Source: a virus
Taxonomy: Duplodnaviria; Caudoviricetes
Strand: one strand, 5' to 3'
IMG/VR virus record: IMGVR_UViG_3300008255_000076
Span: 1-36,311 of that record
Length of the DNA stretch: 36,311 nucleotides
Shown here: positions 3,441 through 33,606 of the stretch, in pieces
How positions within the stretch are numbered: the first letter of the stretch is position 1
How the letters are laid out: every line of letters starts with the position of its first letter
The notes under the pieces: model-generated
The model's input: the letters and a program-made list of their open reading frames with translations, nothing else
Databases searched by the model: none
What the model was told of the DNA's origin: nothing
Position numbers and translations under genes: made by a program

Positions 3441-5498
3441 TTAAGCGGAATATCCCTGCAAACGCTCAATGCCTGCGTCGCTTGCAAAGAGCATATCGCC
3501 CTTACCAAGTAACTTTTCGGCACCGTCCTCGTCTAGCATTACTCGGCTGTCCACGCCCTTGCTCATACGCAAGACAACACGAGTTGGGAAGTTAACCTTA
3601 ATATCGCCGTTAATCACGCGTGTTGAGGCACGCTGTGTGGCAATAATGAGGTGGATACCGCACGCACGACCTTTCTGTGCGAGTACCTGAATAAGTGAAC
3701 CAATGTGCGTTTTCATTCCGAGGTCAGCGAACTCGTCAATGATTACGAACTTGTAGCGCATATTGGGCATATCCTCTATGTTCTTTGCCCGAGCCGCTTT
3801 CATTTCCTTGTACCTCTCCTCCATTTCCTCGCACAATGCCTCAAGCGATATTGCGATTGCGGCGTGGTGCGACTGATACTCCTTAACCTTGCCCTCGCCC
3901 TCAAACTGCACCAACTCAACCTGCTTTGGGTCAAAGAGGTGAAGTTCAACACGGGGAATGGTGAGCAACTGGTTTATGAGGTTGTTGAGGAATACTGACT
4001 TGCCCGAACCGCTTGAGCCTGCGACGAGCATATGAGGCGCTTGCCTGATGTCAAAGCGTCGTGCGTCGCCCATTACGGTTTGACCAATTGCAATCTCAAA
4101 CCCTCGTGCCTTTGGCGCCGTTGGGAATGTACGCTCGTCAAGGGGTATCTCAAAGCCTACTAGCCCACTGTCTCTAATTGGCGCTAGGACGCGTATACCC
4201 GACTTTTCTACTACTTGCTCAATGTCCTTGGTGTATGAGGCTATCTTGCTCATTTTAAGCCCAATGGACGGCTCGTAGCGGTACAACTCAACAGAGTTTC
4301 CACGCACTTTTGAATGGAACTCAACCGCAAGCCCGTGTTCGGCGAGCTTCATTTTGATTTTTTCCTCTGTGGTCATATTCTTATAATTTAATGTTTCCGC
4401 AGAAACGAACTTTGCACTGACGGTCTCAAGATATTGCTTCATTGCACCGTCTTTCTGTATTCGCTTCTTAAGGAAGTCAGTAATGTTGTCAACTTTGTTC
4501 TTTTTGAACGCCTTTTCGCGCTCCTCGTCTTGGTCAAGTCGGTGAATGTACGCGAGGATTGAAACCTCTTTGTCGTACATTGCGTACACATTCGGCACGA
4601 ACACCTGCTTGCCGAGCAAGGCGTCCGTAACGTCGTAGTAGTACCGATAAAAGAACTCAAATATGAGAGGGTGGTCGTCAAAGACGATTTCAAACTCTCG
4701 CATTTGTGGTGAATTGTCAGCGTTCTTGCTGATTTTGAACTCCGCGTACACCATTGAGTAAGGCACTTCGCCTGTCTCTGCCGCAACGAGGAAGTAGTTG
4801 AACGCCGCCTGAATGAGTTTTGCGCCGTCAATCGCTTCGGGATTTGAGTACGTTGAGGTTATTTTGTGGTCGCGGATAATCAGCCTGTCTTTGTGGTCGC
4901 GGTACACGAGGTCGGCAGAACCCTTGAGAGGGATTGGCAACACTTTCCCGTCAACCTCAATCTTGTGCTTGAGCATTTTTTCAACAAGCACAACCTCTTT
5001 GACGTACTTTCGGTAATCAAACTCTTTGATGTACCCAAAGAACGCAAAGGCAAACTTCTCGTTCAGTTTCTCTCGGCTTGCAATGACAGTGTTGTATCCA
5101 ATGAAGCCGTCGGAATACCCGAGCAAGTAATCCAAGCCGACTTGGTGAGCAATCTTTATTGCTTCGCCGTCGTCTTGAGGCACTGGCACGTCGGGATTGC
5201 CGCCAAGGTACGTTTCAAGCGCCTTGTGCATTGCTTTCCCGAGAACGTTTGAGGGTGAACTTGTGGTCTCAATTTGGTCGCCGTTAATGTAGTTCACCTT
5301 GAACATAAACGGGTCTGACCCAAACTTGGTGAATGACGAGTACGAGTAATGAGGGACAGGGAAGTTTGCGAACTCCGCAACCAAGCCTGTGTCGTCCTTA
5401 CTGGTTCTTTTCGTTACCGTCGGCAACGTCAGTTTCGCCAATTTGGATTTCCGCTTCACCCGTTGAGGTTTCTTGGTTGTGGTCATTGTCGTTGTCAT
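3441..5498 (-). CDS. PD-(D/E)XK (RecB/AddB-like) nuclease fused to an FtsK/SpoIIIE alpha-beta ATPase motor
   Basis: N-half: SYSS...GKAMHKALE...LKGSADL...IIRDHK...QAAFNY. C-half: FtsK-alpha-like YRYEPSIGLKMSKI...IRVLAPI...GFEIP, Walker A AGSSGSGKS, LFDPKQVEL, Walker B IIDEFADL, GRACGIHLIIATQR, GAEKLLGKGDML. Start uncertain (5498, 5486, or TTG 5384). Confidence 0.9.
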   Translation of the reverse strand: MTTTMTTTKKPQRVKRKSKLAKLTLPTVTKRTSKDDTGLVAEFANFPVPHYSYSSFTKFGSDPFMFKVNYINGDQIETTSSPSNVLGKAMHKALETYLGGNPDVPVPQDDGEAIKIAHQVGLDYLLGYSDGFIGYNTVIASREKLNEKFAFAFFGYIKEFDYRKYVKEVVLVEKMLKHKIEVDGKVLPIPLKGSADLVYRDHKDRLIIRDHKITSTYSNPEAIDGAKLIQAAFNYFLVAAETGEVPYSMVYAEFKISKNADNSPQMREFEIVFDDHPLIFEFFYRYYYDVTDALLGKQVFVPNVYAMYDKEVSILAYIHRLDQDEEREKAFKKNKVDNITDFLKKRIQKDGAMKQYLETVSAKFVSAETLNYKNMTTEEKIKMKLAEHGLAVEFHSKVRGNSVELYRYEPSIGLKMSKIASYTKDIEQVVEKSGIRVLAPIRDSGLVGFEIPLDERTFPTAPKARGFEIAIGQTVMGDARRFDIRQAPHMLVAGSSGSGKSVFLNNLINQLLTIPRVELHLFDPKQVELVQFEGEGKVKEYQSHHAAIAISLEALCEEMEERYKEMKAARAKNIEDMPNMRYKFVIIDEFADLGMKTHIGSLIQVLAQKGRACGIHLIIATQRASTRVINGDIKVNFPTRVVLRMSKGVDSRVMLDEDGAEKLLGKGDMLFASDAGIERLQGYSA

Positions 5499-12524: not shown

Positions 12525-15179
12525 TTAGCAGGTAAGTTGGTCAATGACCGATTGCGCAAGGTCGGCGGCACTCAACTTCTTTTTGACGGTTGCCTTTGCG
12601 CCCTCCGCACCCTCTTTGAGTTTTGCCTGCACGCCCGTTGCCTGACGCTCTCCACGCTGTTTTGCGAGGAACTTAAATGTGGTCTTGCCTGCACGTTCAA
12701 TACGCGCCGCAAGCACCTGTTGAATAAAGAAATGGGGGCTGTTCTCATTAAAGCGTCCACGCTCCGATACGATTTCCTGACCGCGACGGGTCTGCCTCAA
12801 TGAGCGTGAGCGCTCCAACTGTGCCGCAAGCGCATAATCCTTGTTTTCGGTTGCCTGTTCCGCAAGGGCAATGCTGATTGCGGTTTCAGTAACGCCCTCG
12901 GGCGCACCCTGCATACCGAGTGCAATACGCTTCGCCTCTTTCGGGTTTTTCTCAATGAACTCAAGAGCCTTGGCAGTATCGTCAGCAAGGTTCAATTTGT
13001 TGTAGTTCACGTCAAAGTCAGCGTACTCACCAAGTCGCGCCTCTACGCGAGAGAACGCCTTTGATTTCTTGACTTCACCCTTTGTTTTAACGGGTTTTTT
13101 CTCAACCTGATTTTGAGTGGTGTTGCGGATAACAGGGGCGTTGCTCTGTCGCAATTCCCACTTTTTCGTTTCCTTATTGAAAGTTCCGTTGACTGCACGC
13201 TCTACCATAAGCGCACGGTCAGTGGTGCCGTACTTCTTTTTCGCCTGCTCAAGGCTCATACGCACGATACGCTCACCGTCCTTGGTTGCCTCAAAGTAGA
13301 GTTTGCCTGTTTTCTTGGACTTGGTGAACCGAGCCTCTGCCTTACCCTGTGCGTCCCCTTTCTTTGAGTATTGGGTAGCGCGGTACACACCCGTTCCCGT
13401 CTTTTCAACGTTCGGACTTACTTGTTCATTAGACTTTACAAGTGGCTTTTTACCCTCCTTTTGTGGTTTAATCGTTGAGGTTTCTGCCTCTTTTTCTTTC
13501 TTGATTTTTACCTCTCCAACCTTAGTTGGCTTCTTTATCTCGCTTTGGATTTCCTGCAACTTGGCAAGTTCCTCGCCAACAGCATTTGGTAGGCGAGACT
13601 TAACCCACGCAAGGATTTCCTTTTTACCTGCCTCAATAGCCTGCTTCTGCGTCGTATAGGTCTCTGAACTTATGAAAGGCGCCTGCACGCTGTTTGCGCC
13701 AGTGTCGGCAGAGAATGAGTACACAAACTTACCGTCGGGGTATTGGACGGTTTCAATCGTGGCAAGGGGGTTCTCTTGCACGTCGTCAGCGATATACACG
13801 GGGCGCTGTTTGACCGCCTGTTGGTAGTCGCCCAACTGCTCCTGCAACACGCTTAAACGCCTCGTGGCGGTGTCGTTCTGTGGGTCTGTGCGTACTTCTG
13901 CCTCAAGGTCTCTTGCCTCGTCCCTGACGGCTGAAAAGTCGGTATTGAGGGTTCCTGTAACGGTACCCTTTGGCGGTTCGCCCTCTGACTGTAATGACGG
14001 GTCAACTTCAACGTTGGTACCCTGACCAATGACCTTACCTGCTCCTGCGGCAACGCCTGTTATGCCTGCACCTGAAAGTCCACCAATAAGGAACTCGTCA
14101 ACCATACCGCCTGACTTAACGTACTCCGTAACCTTGGCAACAACTGCCTCGCGCTCCGCTTCTGTGCGTGCGTTTTTGTAGTCGTTGGCATACTTGAGAA
14201 ATGTTTGCGACGGCTCGGTAGTACCCTCAACGAGAAAACCTTTACCCATTTGGGTTGCAAACGCCTTAAGCCCTGCCTCGCCACCCTCCTTAATCACGGT
14301 CTTGAGTGCGCTTTCTGCAAAGCCTGAAATGATTGTGTCCCCTACGGTGTCAATCGCAATGTTGCCCAAACTCTCAACGCGTCCCTTGTCCTGTCGTTGG
14401 CTTTCTGCGGAAATAGGTGCGAAATAAGCAAGAGACACCGCACGTCCTGCGTTCGGGCTTCTCGTCGCATATGAGGTACCCACAGCAAGCAATGCGCCAA
14501 TGGCTGACTGTACGCCGCTATCCTGTAAGCCGTACATAATCTTTTCAAAGCGTGAGTTCTCGGGGTCTTTGCTCTTTGCCACGAGCGCTGAATATGCCTC
14601 GTCATAGGTGTCGTCGCCAATAGACTTGACCCGAGCAATTACCTTGAGAGGAATGTTTGAGGTGTTTTCGTACACCGCCCCCGTGATTTTCTTACCCGTT
14701 TCAGAGTTCAAAAACTTAATGAGTGGCACGTCTTGGTTTGCTTCCTCAAGTATCTTTGCCTTTTCCTCGGGTGTTTGAGCCGCCTTGAAAGCGTCCAAGC
14801 GAGGCGTTGAGAGCGTCATTTTGCCAGTGGTCGGGTCTTTGGTATAGGTCTTGTCCTTTCCGTATAAAAGTTCGCGCATAGGCAATGCCGCCTCCTCGTT
14901 CTTTCGGTTCTGCTCTGAAAACCAATTACCGACAGAGGTTGCAACCTTTCCTGCAAGAGAAACAGCCTTGTCAAAGAACCCTGATTTTTCCTCGGGTTTT
15001 GCGACAGTCTCAACCTGCACCTGCTTAGGTGTAGGTTGTGATTTTTTGTCAGCAATGGCTTGGACGTAGGGATTTGCCGAGACAGTGCGAGACTCACTAC
15101 TGTTACTTCTCGGGGTTACGTCTATCTCCTCCTCGTCCGTACCCTTACTTTTTTTTATTGCTTCTGCATAAGGGTTCAT
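12525..15179 (-). CDS. large putative internal virion / ejection protein
   Basis: 884 aa; Gly/Ala-rich hydrophobic segments followed by Lys-rich regions; gene position. Confidence 0.65.
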   Translation of the reverse strand: MNPYAEAIKKSKGTDEEEIDVTPRSNSSESRTVSANPYVQAIADKKSQPTPKQVQVETVAKPEEKSGFFDKAVSLAGKVATSVGNWFSEQNRKNEEAALPMRELLYGKDKTYTKDPTTGKMTLSTPRLDAFKAAQTPEEKAKILEEANQDVPLIKFLNSETGKKITGAVYENTSNIPLKVIARVKSIGDDTYDEAYSALVAKSKDPENSRFEKIMYGLQDSGVQSAIGALLAVGTSYATRSPNAGRAVSLAYFAPISAESQRQDKGRVESLGNIAIDTVGDTIISGFAESALKTVIKEGGEAGLKAFATQMGKGFLVEGTTEPSQTFLKYANDYKNARTEAEREAVVAKVTEYVKSGGMVDEFLIGGLSGAGITGVAAGAGKVIGQGTNVEVDPSLQSEGEPPKGTVTGTLNTDFSAVRDEARDLEAEVRTDPQNDTATRRLSVLQEQLGDYQQAVKQRPVYIADDVQENPLATIETVQYPDGKFVYSFSADTGANSVQAPFISSETYTTQKQAIEAGKKEILAWVKSRLPNAVGEELAKLQEIQSEIKKPTKVGEVKIKKEKEAETSTIKPQKEGKKPLVKSNEQVSPNVEKTGTGVYRATQYSKKGDAQGKAEARFTKSKKTGKLYFEATKDGERIVRMSLEQAKKKYGTTDRALMVERAVNGTFNKETKKWELRQSNAPVIRNTTQNQVEKKPVKTKGEVKKSKAFSRVEARLGEYADFDVNYNKLNLADDTAKALEFIEKNPKEAKRIALGMQGAPEGVTETAISIALAEQATENKDYALAAQLERSRSLRQTRRGQEIVSERGRFNENSPHFFIQQVLAARIERAGKTTFKFLAKQRGERQATGVQAKLKEGAEGAKATVKKKLSAADLAQSVIDQLTC

Positions 15180-25107: not shown

Positions 25108-26079
25108 TTACGCCGTTACACCGTGTTCAATACGAGTAAGGAAGTCGTTGTTGAGGATTTTAGCCACAAACGTAATCTTCCAACCCGAAGTTGCACGCTG
25201 GTCAAGTGGGTCGTCAGTACCTGCGGAACCAAGAGGCTTCACAATGTTTTTGACGGCTTCACCTGAAACACGAGTTGTACCGTACGCCTCTGCACCGAAA
25301 ATAATCGTTGCGTAAACGTCAGCAGAACTCTCTCCCTCGCCTGTGAACACCTTAGCGTTAGGGCTTTCAACGAAGCGAACCTCGTCTACTGCTCCAACCT
25401 CGTTGTCCATAGCCTTTTTGGTACTTGCGTACTTCTCAACAGGCACCCAACCAGTTACGCCCTTGAGGTCGTAAGTAGTGTTTGGGTGAACCAGTCCAAT
25501 GAAAGCCGCGTTGATAGGGGTAGTGTTAATACCAGTATCAGCGTTAATCATTCGGCTGATTTTGCGTGCCTTGTTGTTCTTAAGGAGGCGTACTGCCTTT
25601 TTAATGAACACGTCAGTAATGATGTCGGTTGCCGCAACGTGTGAACGCTGTGTTGAACCTGACCCGACGTAGAACACAGAAGTACCTGCGGCAAGAATGT
25701 CGCGAGTAATCTGGTCAATCGTGTCTCCCATTTGGTCGCCGAGGATTTCCGCAGTTTCCATAAGGATAGGGTCTTCGCTTTCGTAGTCCAGTACGTCAGT
25801 AATGGTTACGAAGTCTCCGTACTGCGCCACTGTTGCAGTGATGTCAGTAACAGAAAGTGAAGAACCTGTCGGGGTAACTCCCTCCGTGAGTGCGGTTGTA
25901 GCCGCAGTAAGATTGCCGTAACGTCGGAACTTGATAGTTGACGTACCTGCCTTTCGCGGAATGTCGCGAACCTGCGCCCACTGCGCGTGTATAAACGCAG
26001 GTACGGCACGCATAAGAAGTGTCTTGTCATAAAAGACGTTCACTTCGGCAGGGATTTGAGTACGAGTTGTATTTCCCAT
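25108..26079 (-). CDS. major capsid protein (N4-gp56-like family)
   Basis: TIKFRRY...LTEGVTP...QYG...DPLDQRATSGWK. Confidence 0.9.
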   Translation of the reverse strand: MGNTTRTQIPAEVNVFYDKTLLMRAVPAFIHAQWAQVRDIPRKAGTSTIKFRRYGNLTAATTALTEGVTPTGSSLSVTDITATVAQYGDFVTITDVLDYESEDPILMETAEILGDQMGDTIDQITRDILAAGTSVFYVGSGSTQRSHVAATDIITDVFIKKAVRLLKNNKARKISRMINADTGINTTPINAAFIGLVHPNTTYDLKGVTGWVPVEKYASTKKAMDNEVGAVDEVRFVESPNAKVFTGEGESSADVYATIIFGAEAYGTTRVSGEAVKNIVKPLGSAGTDDPLDQRATSGWKITFVAKILNNDFLTRIEHGVTA

Positions 26080-26122: not shown

Positions 26123-26881
26123 TTAACGGTCAGCGAGTTTTGCGCGAACTTCCTGTTGCTTTGCCTCCAACTCCTCCCTTGATAGGTTGGCGTTAGATTT
26201 GACACCGCCTGCGTCAGCCGCACCTCCTCCGCTTTTCGTTTTCTTTGCTTCTTGGTCTGCGATTTTGCCCCTCTTAGCGCCGATTTTTAAGAGGTCTTTA
26301 CCTGCTACCCCGTAAAAGATTTCCTCAATTGGAACGTCCTTACGGGACGGGTGAGACATATACTTTCGGGCTTTTGCCTCATAGGGCTTGAAGTCAGGGT
26401 TGTCCGTAAGGAAAGTTTTAATTTCCTGTTCGTCCTGTGCCTTGGCTTCTTTTTCAACGAACGGTTTAAGGGCTTTCTCCACAACCTTGCCGATAGTTTC
26501 CTTGTCAGCAGGGTCAATGTCGTCGTCCTCGTCGTCGTCAGAGGCTTTGTCCTTATCTTTCTCGCCACCCTTAGTTGCCTTGCGGCGTTCTTGGCGCTCC
26601 TTGATAAAGTCAATCGGGCGTTTACGGGTTGGAGGTTCTTTGTCCTCGTCCTCGTCGTCGTCCTTGGAGGTGGATTTCTTGGACTTTTTATCGTCCTTTT
26701 CTTCCTCGTCGTCGTCAGTTTCCTCCTCGTCGTCGGAACTGTCGTCGTTGTTTTCGTCAGTGTCGGCACCCTCCTCGGTGTCGTCGTCTGCGCCGTCGTT
26801 GTCTTTTGAGGTGTCGGTGTCCTCCTCACCTGCTTTTTCCTGCTCGTCCTCGGCAGGTTTGGTGGTTTCAATCTCTCCCAT
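26123..26881 (-). CDS. capsid scaffolding protein
   Basis: Very acidic N-terminus, helical C-terminus, immediately upstream of the MCP gene. Confidence 0.75.
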   Translation of the reverse strand: MGEIETTKPAEDEQEKAGEEDTDTSKDNDGADDDTEEGADTDENNDDSSDDEEETDDDEEEKDDKKSKKSTSKDDDEDEDKEPPTRKRPIDFIKERQERRKATKGGEKDKDKASDDDEDDDIDPADKETIGKVVEKALKPFVEKEAKAQDEQEIKTFLTDNPDFKPYEAKARKYMSHPSRKDVPIEEIFYGVAGKDLLKIGAKRGKIADQEAKKTKSGGGAADAGGVKSNANLSREELEAKQQEVRAKLADR

Positions 26882-26909: not shown

Positions 26910-27101
26910 AATACTCGCTTCCTTGTAAAAATGGGGGTAAAAACAAGAAAACGGACGCTCGTTTCGGTGGGACTAGCACCTAACGGGATTGCGATTTGTT
27001 ATCCCGAGCCTATCGGCTCGGTGTTGAGGGGTAGCAGGTTGCAAAGGACAAATCGCCAAAGCCCAAGCATTACTACTCCCCAACACCGAACCGACAGTAT
27101 T
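26910..27101 (-). ncRNA. candidate structured RNA A with loop-loop pairing, upstream of scaffold/MCP
   Basis: 20-bp helix 27078-27097/27010-27029 with three G-U pairs on minus; apical GCGAUUUGU complementary to hairpin loop ACAAAUCGC (26991-26999); further 11-bp stem; closing AAUACU/AGUAUU. Confidence 0.7.
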
Positions 27102-27127: not shown

Positions 27128-27526
27128 TCATTCCTTTTGTCCGACCCTACGCACCTTTGCATAGGGGTCGTACTCGGGAACTTCGGTGTCTTTTTGGTTG
27201 AACCTGCCTATGATTTCATTTGGCTTGTTCAGTAACTCCTCAAGGTATGCCAAACGGTCTCTCAGCCTGTCGCACTCCTCCTCCTTAAGGGCTGTCTTGC
27301 CGTCCTCGGGGTCAACCTTTCGCAAGATTGCCGCCTCAAGGGTTGCAATGTTGCCCTCAAATATCTGTTTGAGGAGCAACCAACCCCTGTCGGACTGCAA
27401 GGACTGCAAAGCGTCAATGATGTCTGCCGCCTGCTCTGGTCGGTCAACGGAAAGGTCAAACTTCTTATGACGCTTTACCGCCTTGACCGCCTTTTTCGTA
27501 TTCTTTTTTGTTGGTTTGGTTGCCAT
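27128..27526 (-). CDS. head-module hypothetical protein between portal and scaffold
   Basis: 132 aa, helical, with a Lys-rich N-tail. Confidence 0.75.
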   Translation of the reverse strand: MATKPTKKNTKKAVKAVKRHKKFDLSVDRPEQAADIIDALQSLQSDRGWLLLKQIFEGNIATLEAAILRKVDPEDGKTALKEEECDRLRDRLAYLEELLNKPNEIIGRFNQKDTEVPEYDPYAKVRRVGQKE

Positions 27527-27531
27527 AAGAG

Positions 27532-29496
27532 TTACATTGTTATATTCGCCTCGTTAACAGGCGTCTTGGTACCTGACCCCTGTTGCATACCCTGACCGCC
27601 CGTAGGGTTCTGTGCGCTAGGCATTTGAGGAATGATGTCAGGACGTACCCGAGCAAGGAGCATAGCCCTCTTGTGAGCCTCTATGTGGGCATACTTGGCA
27701 GGTATGTCGCTCAACTTGTTATGGATTTCAAGGTGCGTAATGTGGTCGTCGGTAGGTAGCACCTCAACGAGTTCGTCAATCTCAAGTTGGCGGTTCTCGT
27801 CCTCTGCACGCAACTCCTCAATGGTAGGCGGCAAGAGTAGGTCAATCTCGTCCTTTTTTAGTCCCTTGAGTTTTCCCAAACGCTTGAACGCATAGCGCAG
27901 GTTTGAGGTAGGGTCTTGCGCAATGATTGAGACATAGCCCTCAAAGTTTCGGCTCTTGTTGAACTGCTTTGCCTCTGAAAGCACACGGCTCTCAACCGAT
28001 ACGTCCAAGTCAGTTTTAGACACAATGTCCTCACGTCTGAATGGTCGGTACTGTGCGCCGAGAGCGCCAACAACGCGCACAATCTTTTCGTCAATGCCGT
28101 CCTTGAAGTGGTCGCGGTAGAGGCGGTGCCACTGTTGCCAAAAGCGCTTTTCTGACCACCCGAAAATCTTTGCCGAGAGGCTGTAACGGGTATCAACTTT
28201 TTGGTTCTGCAATGAGAGTTCCGTTGCGGTACGCTTCGTATCGCTCTGAACGCCCTGTTGAATGTCAGGGGTGGCGGTAGCCTTTTGAGCCGACGCGTCA
28301 AGCACGTCCATAATGTATTGGACTTCCTGCTTAACTTGGTCTTTTGGCATTACCTGAACAGCGTTTGAAGTGTCGCCGTCAACAGGAATAAACTTATTGA
28401 AGTCAAAGTTGAGGTCAGCGCGGTTCTTAATCTTGTTCGTGTTGAACAGGTACATTGGGTGCAGGTTCGCCTTGGCGCCCTTAAGCCCGAGGTTCTGCAA
28501 CACTGCACGCGCTCTCTGCTTGTCCTCTACAAGGTCAGGGATAGAAATACCGTCAAAGGAGTTTGGAAGTGGGTATATGCGACGGTCAATAACGGGAATA
28601 TCGTTTGTCTTGAGTTCGTGGTATCGGACTACCTTGCGACGATTGTTTGCGAGAGTAACGAACACACGCTTGCCATTCCACATTGTGAACCACTCCAATA
28701 CGCGGTGGTCAACGTTGTCGCCCTTAAGTCCTGTGAACTTAGAGGTCTGTTGGAAGCCTCGTGCCTCCTGTGAAAGGGTCTCTGCTTCGTCAGTGAATGA
28801 CTTAAGGTCTTTGGTCTCATTCTTGAGTTCGTCAAAGCCGAAGTACACGCCTGCCTCTTTCATATCGCCCTTGGTAAGGCGTGCCTCACGACCCATAAAG
28901 CGTGCGCGTCCACGTCCTCTCAAGTCGCCGTTAACGCTCGTTGCGCGAGGGTCAACAATTACCGTCATTCGGTTCCAATACTCGGGTATTGGCAACATAC
29001 GGTCTCGGTCAAACTCCATAAGGCACACAAGTCCAGTGCCGTAAAAGGTAGCGTCCCAATCCCAATTGTAGTCAAGTATGTCCTTTTCCATTTCGCCGTT
29101 GTCGTATTCGGCGAGGGTAGTGTCATTCTCTGCAACGTCCTCGTCGCCTTGTTCACGCGCAACGAACGTAACGTTGAGTTTGTCGTCATAGAGCGACGCA
29201 AGTACGGTCTGGTGAATAGTGAAAAGCAGAGGGTCGCCCACAGCCTCTTTGTCGCGCTTTTGGTTGTTATAGAGTTTGAGGCGTACCCCGAACTCGTCAA
29301 ACTTAGGCTTGAAACTCCACCAACCAAGTTGGTATTCGGTCTCAACCTGCTCAATGAGGGACGTAAAGTCAGTCTTGCCGTACTTCTCAAGTTCTGCGGC
29401 AAGAGCGTCGCCCTCCATTTCGTCAGTCGTCAAAACAGGCTCGGCTTTCGCCACCTTTTTGACTGCCTTTTTCTTTTTGGTAATTGCTTTGGGCAT
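27532..29496 (-). CDS. portal protein (P22-like)
   Basis: 654 aa downstream of TerL; GISIPDLVEDKQR, TATE and DDHITHLEIH motifs. Confidence 0.85.
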   Translation of the reverse strand: MPKAITKKKKAVKKVAKAEPVLTTDEMEGDALAAELEKYGKTDFTSLIEQVETEYQLGWWSFKPKFDEFGVRLKLYNNQKRDKEAVGDPLLFTIHQTVLASLYDDKLNVTFVAREQGDEDVAENDTTLAEYDNGEMEKDILDYNWDWDATFYGTGLVCLMEFDRDRMLPIPEYWNRMTVIVDPRATSVNGDLRGRGRARFMGREARLTKGDMKEAGVYFGFDELKNETKDLKSFTDEAETLSQEARGFQQTSKFTGLKGDNVDHRVLEWFTMWNGKRVFVTLANNRRKVVRYHELKTNDIPVIDRRIYPLPNSFDGISIPDLVEDKQRARAVLQNLGLKGAKANLHPMYLFNTNKIKNRADLNFDFNKFIPVDGDTSNAVQVMPKDQVKQEVQYIMDVLDASAQKATATPDIQQGVQSDTKRTATELSLQNQKVDTRYSLSAKIFGWSEKRFWQQWHRLYRDHFKDGIDEKIVRVVGALGAQYRPFRREDIVSKTDLDVSVESRVLSEAKQFNKSRNFEGYVSIIAQDPTSNLRYAFKRLGKLKGLKKDEIDLLLPPTIEELRAEDENRQLEIDELVEVLPTDDHITHLEIHNKLSDIPAKYAHIEAHKRAMLLARVRPDIIPQMPSAQNPTGGQGMQQGSGTKTPVNEANITM

Positions 29497-30370: not shown

Positions 30371-31903
30371 CTACGCATAGGGGTCAAAGTTAATTTTCTC
30401 AACACTCTGATTTCTTTTCGGCAGAGGGAACCATTGCGGCTCTTGAATGAGAATACGTCCCAAGTCCTCAATAAGGTGGTCGTCCTTGTCAATCGGCGCG
30501 TTCGGTACTCCCTTGGTCTCGCTTGAGCGTCCCTTAAGTTCCTGCCAACGCCAGTGTTCAACTTCGTAAATGAGCCTTTGGCAGTTCTCAAAGACGTATA
30601 GTTCAGGAGCCATAATCATTTCGCCGCCCTCAATGCGCTGATAGGCAAGAGCGTCAATGATACGTTGGTTGGACATTGTACGAGCCTTGGTACCGTCCTC
30701 GTACGACAAACCGTAGTCGCCAAGGCGCTGTGTGAGGCTCTTACCGTCCTCGTCGTGCTGATTGACGATAGAGGCAGAGGGGTCAATAAGGTGCTTCACA
30801 ACGCGGTATTGGGCGTCTTTCTGCTTGATGTAGTAGGCAAGTTCTTTGGTACCGTTCTCGGGCTTAAGCCACAACTCGTCAACGACGAACTTACGACCCT
30901 TGCGGTCAATGGCTACCCAAAGTCCTGCGTCATTGGTGCGAGGGTGAGGGTCAAGAGCGTGCCATACAACATAGTCGGCAGGGTCAAGCGCAAACGGCTT
31001 AATAACGTGTATGTTCCTATTCCACCGCTTAAACACAAGCCCAACGAGGTGTTGGAACTTACCGTAAATACGGGCTTGCTTCTCGTCCTCTGAATACTCC
31101 GCAATGATGTTCATTATGTGTTCGTGTTCAAGGTGTCCACGCACACCGTGTTGCTTACACGCACTTTCAATACCTGCCTCAATGTAGGCAACCTTACGCT
31201 CGTATTCGGCTGTTACGCCTCCCTCCTCGCTCGTTACTTGTACCTTGTAGTTGCCCTTAGCAAACGCGTCGTAGAGGTACGCAGAGCCTGCAAGAGGGGT
31301 TGCTGTAATGATTATTATACCGCCCTTACGCATACGGGAAACGGTAGCCTTAAAGATTGCCTCTGGTGGCGGTTCGTCAAACCACGCCCAACCAAGCGTT
31401 ACACCCTCAAACTCTCGGGCGTCCTGCTCATAGGTCATAAGGTCAAACTCAAAGCCTGTGTCAGTTTCAAAGATACTCTCAAAGGTCTTGTTGCCCTTGT
31501 GCGTCGTATACCTGCCCTCGGGAAACCAAAACTTGAGTTCAGGAATGATGTTTTTGGTCAGGTTGGTCGGGTCAGAGACAATACGCCCTTTCTTTTTCCA
31601 AGGGAACTCCTTAAAAATACCCTCATTAAAGTACATATTCTCGCCCGTGTTCCAAAACATATGGGCAAGAATGTTCGCACCTGTCGCCGTCTTTCCCACA
31701 CCGTTTGCGGCAGAGTAGAGGACAATAAAGTTCTCACCGCAGGCAACAGCGTCAATAAACTCCTCACCAACACCTGTTGGCTCGTAGTATCGGTAACGCT
31801 CACGTTCAAGACGCCTCAACATTTCCAGTTGAAGCGCACGCCACTCCTCGTCCGTCATTTCGGGGTCGCGTTCTATGACCTGTTGCTCTGCTTTCTTACT
31901 CAT
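30371..31903 (-). CDS. terL: terminase large subunit
   Basis: Walker A AANGVGKT, Walker B AWFDEPP, motif III TATP, RNase H-like ALDPH and DDHLIED. Confidence 0.92.
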   Translation of the reverse strand: MSKKAEQQVIERDPEMTDEEWRALQLEMLRRLERERYRYYEPTGVGEEFIDAVACGENFIVLYSAANGVGKTATGANILAHMFWNTGENMYFNEGIFKEFPWKKKGRIVSDPTNLTKNIIPELKFWFPEGRYTTHKGNKTFESIFETDTGFEFDLMTYEQDAREFEGVTLGWAWFDEPPPEAIFKATVSRMRKGGIIIITATPLAGSAYLYDAFAKGNYKVQVTSEEGGVTAEYERKVAYIEAGIESACKQHGVRGHLEHEHIMNIIAEYSEDEKQARIYGKFQHLVGLVFKRWNRNIHVIKPFALDPADYVVWHALDPHPRTNDAGLWVAIDRKGRKFVVDELWLKPENGTKELAYYIKQKDAQYRVVKHLIDPSASIVNQHDEDGKSLTQRLGDYGLSYEDGTKARTMSNQRIIDALAYQRIEGGEMIMAPELYVFENCQRLIYEVEHWRWQELKGRSSETKGVPNAPIDKDDHLIEDLGRILIQEPQWFPLPKRNQSVEKINFDPYA

Positions 31904-32919: not shown

Positions 32920-33606
32920 TTATTTGTTATCAGGCTTGGTGCCTGCGTTCTTGTAAGGTTTGGTTGGCTGTCTGTCCTCGCCGTCCCCGAAGTACATATC
33001 TATTCCGAACGAGTGGTCAATCTCGTGTTGAAAGACGTGAGCCTTAAAACTCTCAACCTCCTCGGTTACGGTCTTGAGCCACTTAAAGCCCAAGAATGAA
33101 CGTAAAATCTGATACCGAACGACAACAGTGTGGTACCGCTTCGTGTTTTTCTTGGTGCGGCTAGGGTACGACATACAAGCGTCAGGTGCCTCAAGTAGGT
33201 TTGATACCTTTTTCCAAGCCTTAGTGATTTTTGCTTCGTACTCGTGAGAGTTTTGCTTACGCTGTATCTCACGCTTAGGTACCAAGCGCTCAATCTCGTC
33301 CAACGCCTCAACGACTTCTGCGTTGAATATCACTTGAGCAGGGAAGTAAAAGTTTTTACTGTTCTGTTGGCGCGTGTGCTTCTTGCTCTTTGCGACTAGT
33401 TCGCTTGAGATAGCGAACATTGCAAGTGGTTCCTCGGATACCTGACAGTGGCTTATTGCGACAGCCGACTTCCAGTTTCCCGTGAAACCTGCCTTGTTGC
33501 CCTCCTCAATGAATGAGGCAAGCGCCTTAGCCTCCTCGTATGCACGTCCGAGGTTCTTGCGCGTAACGCGCTCTGACGGCTTGTGGTGAGGCTTAATCAG
33601 TTCCAT
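32920..33606 (-). CDS. def: divergent peptide deformylase
   Basis: Motif 1 AVAISHCQ, motif 2 DACMS (canonical EGCLS), motif 3 QHEIDH, in the correct order. Confidence 0.8.
   Translation of the reverse strand: MELIKPHHKPSERVTRKNLGRAYEEAKALASFIEEGNKAGFTGNWKSAVAISHCQVSEEPLAMFAISSELVAKSKKHTRQQNSKNFYFPAQVIFNAEVVEALDEIERLVPKREIQRKQNSHEYEAKITKAWKKVSNLLEAPDACMSYPSRTKKNTKRYHTVVVRYQILRSFLGFKWLKTVTEEVESFKAHVFQHEIDHSFGIDMYFGDGEDRQPTKPYKNAGTKPDNK

Follow-up and report, generated by a model that had tools for sequence, protein, structure and literature searches.

Introduction

In the leader of the lambda N gene, RNase III modulates a repression that depends on Nus factors. The pRNA of phi29, an RNA of near 200 nt that neighbours head genes, pairs a loop with a distant strand, and dicistrovirus IGR-type IRESs start translation independently of AUG through a codon-anticodon-like pseudoknot. 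GP20, a phage protein whose genes are preceded by structured RNAs, is a scaffold. These RNAs include GP20-a (RF02991), GP20-b (RF03003) and six further candidates upstream of GP20 genes (Fremin et al. 2023, PMC10690425). In lambda, nutL lies about 200 nt upstream of N, and Nus factors repress N translation (PMC5725501); the same source gives the E. coli boxA consensus as GYTCTTTAANA. The ideal substrate of RNase III is a 22-bp duplex (PMC3867540), and rules for the E. coli enzyme have been scored over 11 positions either side of the cut (PMC6212723). The pseudoknot of E. coli rpsO is an autogenous operator for S15 (PMC3985624), and autoregulation of the P22 gene 8 scaffold provides a precedent (10.1101/2022.12.13.520362).

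Here we describe a leader RNA of about 235 nt that precedes the putative scaffold gene of a phage. The leader is a real, conserved and apparently uncatalogued structure that assembles parts of known types in a new way; its function is inferred. Like the lambda N leader, it has a boxA-like box about 200-300 nt before a start codon, followed by a long structured spacer. Unlike the lambda N leader, it leaves no room for boxB, the box and helix of the window being only 7 nt apart; it belongs to a late head operon of a phage with a probably Rho-less host rather than to an early regulator; and it adds a selected hairpin downstream of a predicted cut and a predicted AUG pseudoknot. PHROG matches among the 36 ORFs scanned suggested no lambda N-type protein. 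The leader resembles GP20-a and GP20-b in being a structured cis RNA directly upstream of a phage gene at the scaffold position, and differs from the GP20 RNAs in lacking a covariance-model match, in length (72-107 nt for theirs) and in a downstream protein without a Pfam match.

Results

Genome setting

The window, the whole stretch of DNA analysed, is a complete 36,311-nt phage genome with terminal repeats. The genes around the leader are listed below.

30371-31903, minus strand: large terminase
27532..29496, minus strand: portal protein (phrog_1216, PF23899)
27128..27526, minus strand: conserved 132-aa ORF with no assigned function, ending 11 nt before the boxA-like box
26123..26881, minus strand: acidic 252-aa protein, putative scaffold
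25108..26079, minus strand: major capsid protein (phrog_1357, E 4e-76)

The leader occupies the 246-nt gap that separates the 132-aa ORF from the putative scaffold gene. The acidic 252-aa protein matched no Pfam, PHROG or NCBIfam model, none of 17 proteins at the scaffold position matched a Pfam family at E 0.05, and its assignment as a putative capsid scaffold is drawn from position and composition alone. It carries a conserved basic patch (P83-R86...R96). In the ESM Atlas, the scaffold-position protein fell into unnamed viral clusters; a Phage-scaffold cluster at 0.88 offers no more than a lead. Elsewhere in the window, a 685-aa fusion of an exonuclease-like N-terminus and an FtsK/SpoIIIE-like domain (3441-5498, minus strand) lies beside a RecT-like gene, and a peptide-deformylase-like ORF (32920-33606, minus strand; phrog_2890) lies between the terminase genes. 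No tRNA was found in the window.

Relatives of the phage occur in 11 GTDB genomes, five of which are Patescibacteria; the closest genome match, a contig of phage size, comes from a Bacteroidia bin. In a Kerfeldbacteria bin an integrase is the last of the phage genes, and Elp3 and a methyltransferase come next, the arrangement expected of an integrated prophage. To judge from these relatives, the host probably belongs to the Patescibacteria. Four RNA runs contained only relatives, as contigs, at low depth. An SD-like word was found for only 1 of the 34 genes in the window and for 25 of the 397 ORFs from related loci; because the genes of these phages are mostly without such a word, accessibility of the AUG should matter.

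Conserved leaders among relatives

Capsid searches supplied 22 loci, the best 80 of 158, 11 loci, and the best 80 of 214. The resulting 189 sequences were reduced to 166 with a scaffold-profile match, to 148 with a usable start and upstream DNA, and to 91 distinct leaders; omission of L069, which has a frameshift, left 90, with L110 representing the window. Scaffold starts were set by rule, except in L086 and L100, where they were shifted by hand to the second ATG. The scaffold ORF is frameshifted in the records of L004/L114 and L069, probably through assembly errors.

The first-pass annotation had placed at 26910..27101 a multi-helix RNA that it did not recognise as a member of a known family. 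The minus (mRNA) strand folds with -80 kcal/mol and z -6.69 (0 of 200 shuffles as good), compared with z -2.57 for the plus strand, and conservation and co-variation, sought in the portal-scaffold gaps of relatives, were found in the 90 distinct leaders. The element is larger than first drawn, extending upstream to a boxA-like box (27116-27105) and downstream to the start codon at 26881. The covariance models of Rfam 15 gave no matches in the window or in 16 related loci, in line with the earlier statement on family; the best local E value, 0.19, was far below thresholds, including those of GP20-a, GP20-b, pRNA, the ZTP riboswitch and EGFOA. Resemblances to the ZTP riboswitch and EGFOA were dropped for want of an Rfam match, and two 21-nt blastn matches between the leader and cultured phages were attributed to chance. 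A literature search, which stopped short of the 8,495 alignments of Fremin et al. 2023, found no description of this leader RNA; a fragment of it may be among those 8,495 candidates (PMC10690425).

A predicted pseudoknot at the scaffold start codon

Two modules had been missed in the first-pass annotation, namely the boxA-like box and a start-codon pseudoknot, predicted to involve the following features.

26916..26953, minus strand: last hairpin, 11 bp including two G-U pairs (stem 26953-26943/26926-26916), with a 16-nt U-rich loop
26935-26931, minus strand: CCCAU in the last-hairpin loop, predicted to pair with the scaffold start
26875..26881, minus strand: scaffold start AUGGG(A)G, pseudoknot partner (5 bp, a bulged A and 1 bp)

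The 11-bp G-U-containing stem had been seen before and is upheld. The closing helix that had also been proposed (27101-27096/26915-26910) is not supported: its pair probability is about 0.002, and in the 10 closest leaders the sequence of its 5' strand is free to vary. Bases in the last-hairpin loop complement those of the scaffold start, and the two change together (CCCAU/AUGGG, GGCAU/AUGCC, GCCAU/AUGGC, UCCAU/AUGGA). Loop and first five coding bases form perfect Watson-Crick matches in 59 of 90 leaders, compared with 23.3 ± 3.5 (maximum 38) after permutation; when G-U pairs are allowed, the match is found in 73 of 90 and in 46.6 permuted. A sequence-only alignment of 89 distinct rows gave 90.8% paired loop-AUG cells versus 78.7% in shuffles and 60 double changes versus 24.5, whereas slid controls were 27-45% paired; the double changes fall in only 2 of the 6 pseudoknot pairs, and much of them reflects one clade split. 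Because kinship inflates such counts, separate events on the capsid tree matter. On a quick capsid tree, loop and codon switch together separately in L090, which is AUGGG/CCCAU inside an AUGCC/GGCAU clade, and in L063 (AUGUC/GACAC), L092 (AUGGA/UCCAU), L102 (AUGGC/GCCAU) and L169 (AUGCA/UGCAU). A DNA pattern later brought in eight more scaffold-linked leaders, six of them with a perfect 5-bp pairing; the other two are 4-bp variants, one of them pairing ACGG. These comparisons predict that the last-hairpin loop pairs with the scaffold AUG in a pseudoknot. The loop-AUG duplex alone is weak (-6.7 kcal/mol), and in L016 the pairing is reduced to 3 bp. Near-identical leaders L038 and L125 differ in that single changes in L038 break strand b, strand c (both defined below) and the last loop, which points to decay or assembly error.

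The pseudoknot recalls autogenous operators (rpsO/S15, the T4 gene 32 pseudoknot and P22 gene 8) in its predicted position over an initiation region. It differs from these in using the AUG as one strand of the predicted pseudoknot, on a message that lacks an SD site, and no sequence relation to them is shown. Repression of initiation by the pseudoknot seems to us moderately more probable than activation, and the scaffold protein can be proposed, tentatively, as its ligand. An activating element would have the folded leader recruit or position the 30S subunit on an SD-less message, with the CAU:AUG helix marking the start in the manner of an IRES, by mimicry of a codon-anticodon pair. Such a role would suit phages that lack SD sites and need abundant scaffold and capsid, and several conserved loops suggest a compact fold. 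In eight leaders (the L044 group, L056 and L264) the loop pairs with ACGG, which stands in place of AUGG and remains in frame one or two codons past the AUG. All eight, however, retain an in-frame AUG just upstream, which distinguishes them from dicistrovirus IGR IRESs and suggests that normal initiation is needed. The loop carries CGU instead of CAU in 19 of 89 leaders, AUG pairing normally blocks initiation, and other SD-less genes of the phage manage without such a leader. Activation is on balance distinctly improbable.

Two mutually exclusive helices and a candidate RNase III site

Upstream of the pseudoknot the leader is dominated by a long helix, P1, and by a hairpin that competes with it.

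27071..27097, minus strand: 5' arm of P1 (20 bp, an A-C mismatch and 6 bp), holding strand a (GGUUC, 27092-27088)
27010..27036, minus strand: 3' arm of P1, holding strand b (GAGCC, 27019-27015)
27004..27021, minus strand: competing hairpin b:c, CCGAGCC-GAUA-GGCUCGG, predicted 5'-terminal hairpin of a processed scaffold/capsid mRNA
27020..27021, minus strand: predicted RNase III cut in the 3' arm, with a staggered partner cut predicted at 27085/27084

P1 contains the 20-bp helix noted earlier for its G-U mismatches on the minus strand (27097-27078/27029-27010, three G-U pairs) and continues for 6 bp after the A-C mismatch. The a:b pairing is present in 73 of 90 leaders, and the helix was not found in the other 17. 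P1 has a median length of 26 bp, with at least 22 bp in 56 of the 73 and less than 20 bp in 17. Of the a:b cells, 94.9% are paired, versus 88.4% after shuffling, with 37 double changes versus 12. The competing hairpin, which the first-pass annotation had correctly described as exclusive with the long helix, also co-varies: an anchored test found a perfect 5-bp b:c in 54 of 89 leaders, compared with 15.4 when permuted. A plain MAFFT alignment misses this signal (80.3% versus 75.9% shuffled, not above shuffles) because loop lengths differ. Strands a, b and c vary jointly as GGUUC/GAGCC/GGCUC, AGUUC/GAGCU/AGCUC and GACUC/GAGUC/GACUC, and as CGUUC/GAGCG/CGCUC in L063 and L231. By this comparative evidence, both helices are under selection.

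The b:c state is weaker than P1 by a median of 7.7 kcal/mol (73 leaders; 7.9 in the window, with a probability of about 0), so strand a must be removed by something. When the 3' fragment is folded alone, the competing hairpin forms. Among the 61 helices of at least 18 bp, the start of strand b has 14 bp of duplex above it (10th percentile 13) and 11 bp below; b:c reaches outward by only 0-2 nt in 60 of 61. P1 has the duplex dimensions of an RNase III site (~22 bp, ~11 bp on each side of the cut), and it resembles T7 RNase III sites, which span about two helix turns between genes of a polycistronic message (PMC3867540). The E. coli enzyme prefers A-U pairs at proximal-box positions D and D' (PMC6212723). 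An A-U pair occupies position D in 61 of 61 helices, where the base belongs to the anchor pattern, and position D' in 35 of 61; the window has A-U at both. With the invariant A-U set at position D, the new 5' end falls one base before GAG, at the start of the competing hairpin. These features tilt us slightly towards cleavage of P1 by RNase III, and the competing hairpin would then stabilise the processed mRNA.

The genes nusB and rnc (RNase III) are adjacent and co-oriented in four of the five Patescibacteria MAGs that carry relatives, at these sites.

G001:C55:11570-12534: nusB-rnc pair
G002:C40: nusB-rnc pair
G004:C58: nusB-rnc pair
G005:C108: nusB-rnc pair

Rho scored above the cut-off in none of the five MAGs, which are incomplete.

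Apical loop and movable partner strand

Three smaller hairpins accompany P1.

27046..27064, minus strand: apical hairpin with conserved loop UUUGGCGAUUU (27060-27050)
26984..27006, minus strand: hairpin specific to a subclade, with ACAAAUCGC (26999-26991) as the strand that matches the apical loop
26966..26980, minus strand: short hairpin with conserved UAGUC loop and a co-varying variable stem

A 9-bp kissing loop had been proposed between the first two. The complementarity is present, GCGAUUUGU (27056-27048) matching ACAAAUCGC (26999-26991) with CGGGAU/AUCCCG inside it; three of the bases lie in or beside the apical stem. Because 20% of 2000 shuffled 192-mers also contain a perfect 9-mer complement, the pairing needed support from relatives. 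The apical GGCGA loop is conserved, and a 6-bp partner is found in 38 of 76 leaders (14.6 expected), in zones picked after inspection. By clade the partner occurs in 9 of 10 leaders of the window's own, and in 6 of 15, 3 of 24 (clade C, 2.8 expected) and 20 of 27 of the others, so the kissing loop does not hold family-wide. A stricter, energy-based search found a partner at p 0.05 or less in only 12 of 66. The partner changes position with clade: it may follow c, follow the next hairpin or lie on the 5' side of the helix. The hairpin that encloses it is present in only 5 of the 10 closest leaders. Variant apical loops have matching variant partners in L067, L087, L108, L148, L152, L061 and L063. 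To judge from these patterns, the apical loop and its partner form a real but optional long-range pairing. A pattern for the apical hairpin, limited to its window-type form, had no matches in 401 Patescibacteria genomes. The UAGUC loop is kept on a freely varying stem in most leaders and shows G-U-tolerant complementarity to parts of the apical loop region.

Loop pairing of this kind had suggested a structural or packaging RNA akin to phi29 pRNA, which would be released and would multimerise through intermolecular loop-partner pairing. The leader shares with pRNA a loop that pairs a distant strand, a size near 200 nt and proximity to head genes, here the portal gene region. The apical loop sits ~26 bp above its partner and would seem hard to pair within one molecule, and the partner shifts between the 5' and 3' sides of the helix base. 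Against this, no promoter or terminator of its own bounds the RNA, it has no Rfam match, the loop pairing is dispensable in clade C, and the 3' module co-varies in cis with the downstream start codon. We consider a pRNA-like role very improbable and have set that suggestion aside.

The first-pass annotation had also proposed a switch regulating scaffold translation. Co-variation of a loop with the start codon and selection on two exclusive helices bear out part of that proposal; the energy gap argues against a freely equilibrating switch. A triggered switch in an uncut leader would have a protein, or the ribosome ending the upstream ORF, displace strand a so that b:c forms, and a tertiary rearrangement of apical loop, UAGUC loop and partner strand would open or close the AUG pseudoknot. 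In addition to the co-varying helices and the seven leaders with matched loop variants, such a switch could draw on strand a abutting the upstream stop codon in L015 and L101 and, in part of clade C, on a further upstream hairpin that can capture strand a in a 1:2/2:3/3:4 layout. The stop codon is 20-100 nt from the helix in most leaders, however, and a trigger would have to overcome the 7.7 kcal/mol gap. Riboswitches and attenuators likewise have two exclusive selected helices, but here the alternative helix is neither a terminator, there being no U-tract after the competing hairpin, nor placed over the initiation site: it lies ~120 nt from the AUG, and neither conformer overlaps the last hairpin or the start codon. 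The start of the hairpin in mid-duplex would be a coincidence. A triggered switch is in our view rather unlikely, and we favour cleavage within P1 as the event that releases strand b.

A boxA-like box upstream of P1

27105..27116, minus strand: boxA-like single-stranded box GUUCAUUGAAAA, candidate NusB-S10 site

The box precedes P1 within one mismatch in 47 of 90 leaders, with 1.2 expected and 1 of 90 in coding controls; the pattern was derived from the same leaders in which it was counted. In the remaining 43 it is missing or has more than one mismatch. It resembles the E. coli boxA consensus, which the box of L066 matches exactly. Exact copies number one or two per genome in five phage genomes; a second exact match in the window (14968-14979, minus strand) lies inside an 884-aa ORF, has no long helix after it and may be due to chance. 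The box has no consistent pairing partner among the leaders. Two other assignments were rejected: an arm of a long-range stalk, as there is no shared partner position, and a -35 hexamer, as no -10 lies at the right distance.

As in the phage, rRNA leaders of Patescibacteria carry a boxA-like box. Of three MAGs that include a 16S leader, two have a similar box there, 173 and 96 nt upstream of 16S, and one 23S is preceded by such a box at 73 nt. In one 16S leader (G001; L191:1335-1365) the box forms one side of a 26-bp stalk whose other side is the 16S 3' spacer (-33 kcal/mol), unlike the unpaired phage box. An extended box pattern gave 20 matches in the five MAGs, versus 11 for a reversed control, with only 2 at rRNA leaders. 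Identical extended boxA-like 19-mers were seen 2.4 kb apart at G002:C148:2977 and 5414, with no Rfam RNA near the first. These resemblances make it likely that the box binds NusB-S10.

Co-occurrence of the two modules

The 5' module (box and P1) and the 3' module (last hairpin and AUG pairing) occur together in most of the 90 leaders at similar spacing. The leader RNA is absent from L093, L095, L103 and L107. A promoter was looked for in all 90 leaders, and a sigma-70 match was found in three, two of which are L093 and L107; in these deep relatives without the RNA, it lies 65-69 nt before the scaffold start. In L277 (1345-1380), another deep relative without the RNA, the gap ahead of the scaffold gene is 17 nt long, and a promoter-like site separates scaffold from capsid. 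Some deep relatives (L022, L041, L074, L092, L169) have another type of 5' part and yet retain both last hairpin and AUG pairing. Together with the lack of any pairing that joins the modules, this would fit two elements with no relation to each other: a stalk for processing or stability of the upstream portal message, and a small operator hairpin that serves the scaffold gene independently. Yet the modules co-occur in most leaders, and the selected competing hairpin lies downstream of the predicted cut. We regard unrelated elements as very unlikely.

Discussion

Comparison of the leaders establishes their helices, the co-variation, the complementarity of loop and AUG, the box, the mid-helix position of the competing hairpin, and the lack of SD sites and promoter. 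The reading we put forward, to which we give about half of our credence, is a two-module leader in which a boxA/P1 processing site and an AUG pseudoknot that limits initiation tune the output of scaffold and capsid. The boxA-like box and the ~26-bp helix would form a processing site for host RNase III, and a cut within P1 would free strand b, allowing the competing hairpin to fold as the protective 5' end of a separate scaffold/capsid message. The last loop-AUG pseudoknot would limit initiation, perhaps upon binding free scaffold protein. The purpose would be to raise scaffold and capsid far above portal and terminase of the same transcript, with scaffold matched to need. No secondary-structure path leads from the 5' module to the AUG pseudoknot, and the model leaves the UUGGCGA loop, the UAGUC loop and the movable partner strand without a role. 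A bolder picture, to which we give little weight, is a head operon disguised as an rRNA leader, in which Nus recruitment in a Rho-less host, an RNase III cut and a CAU:AUG ribosome-recruiting RNA would have replaced an ancestral promoter.

The leader defines an RNA family without an Rfam entry that combines rare triple co-variation with a predicted start-codon pseudoknot. It bears on the role of boxA and NusB where Rho appears absent, on how one transcript that has no internal promoter could yield more capsid and scaffold than portal, and on control of translation in messages that lack Shine-Dalgarno sites, all in phages of a bacterial radiation whose gene control has hardly been studied. The leader may, in addition, be the type of RNA operator that has been missing for scaffold autoregulation.
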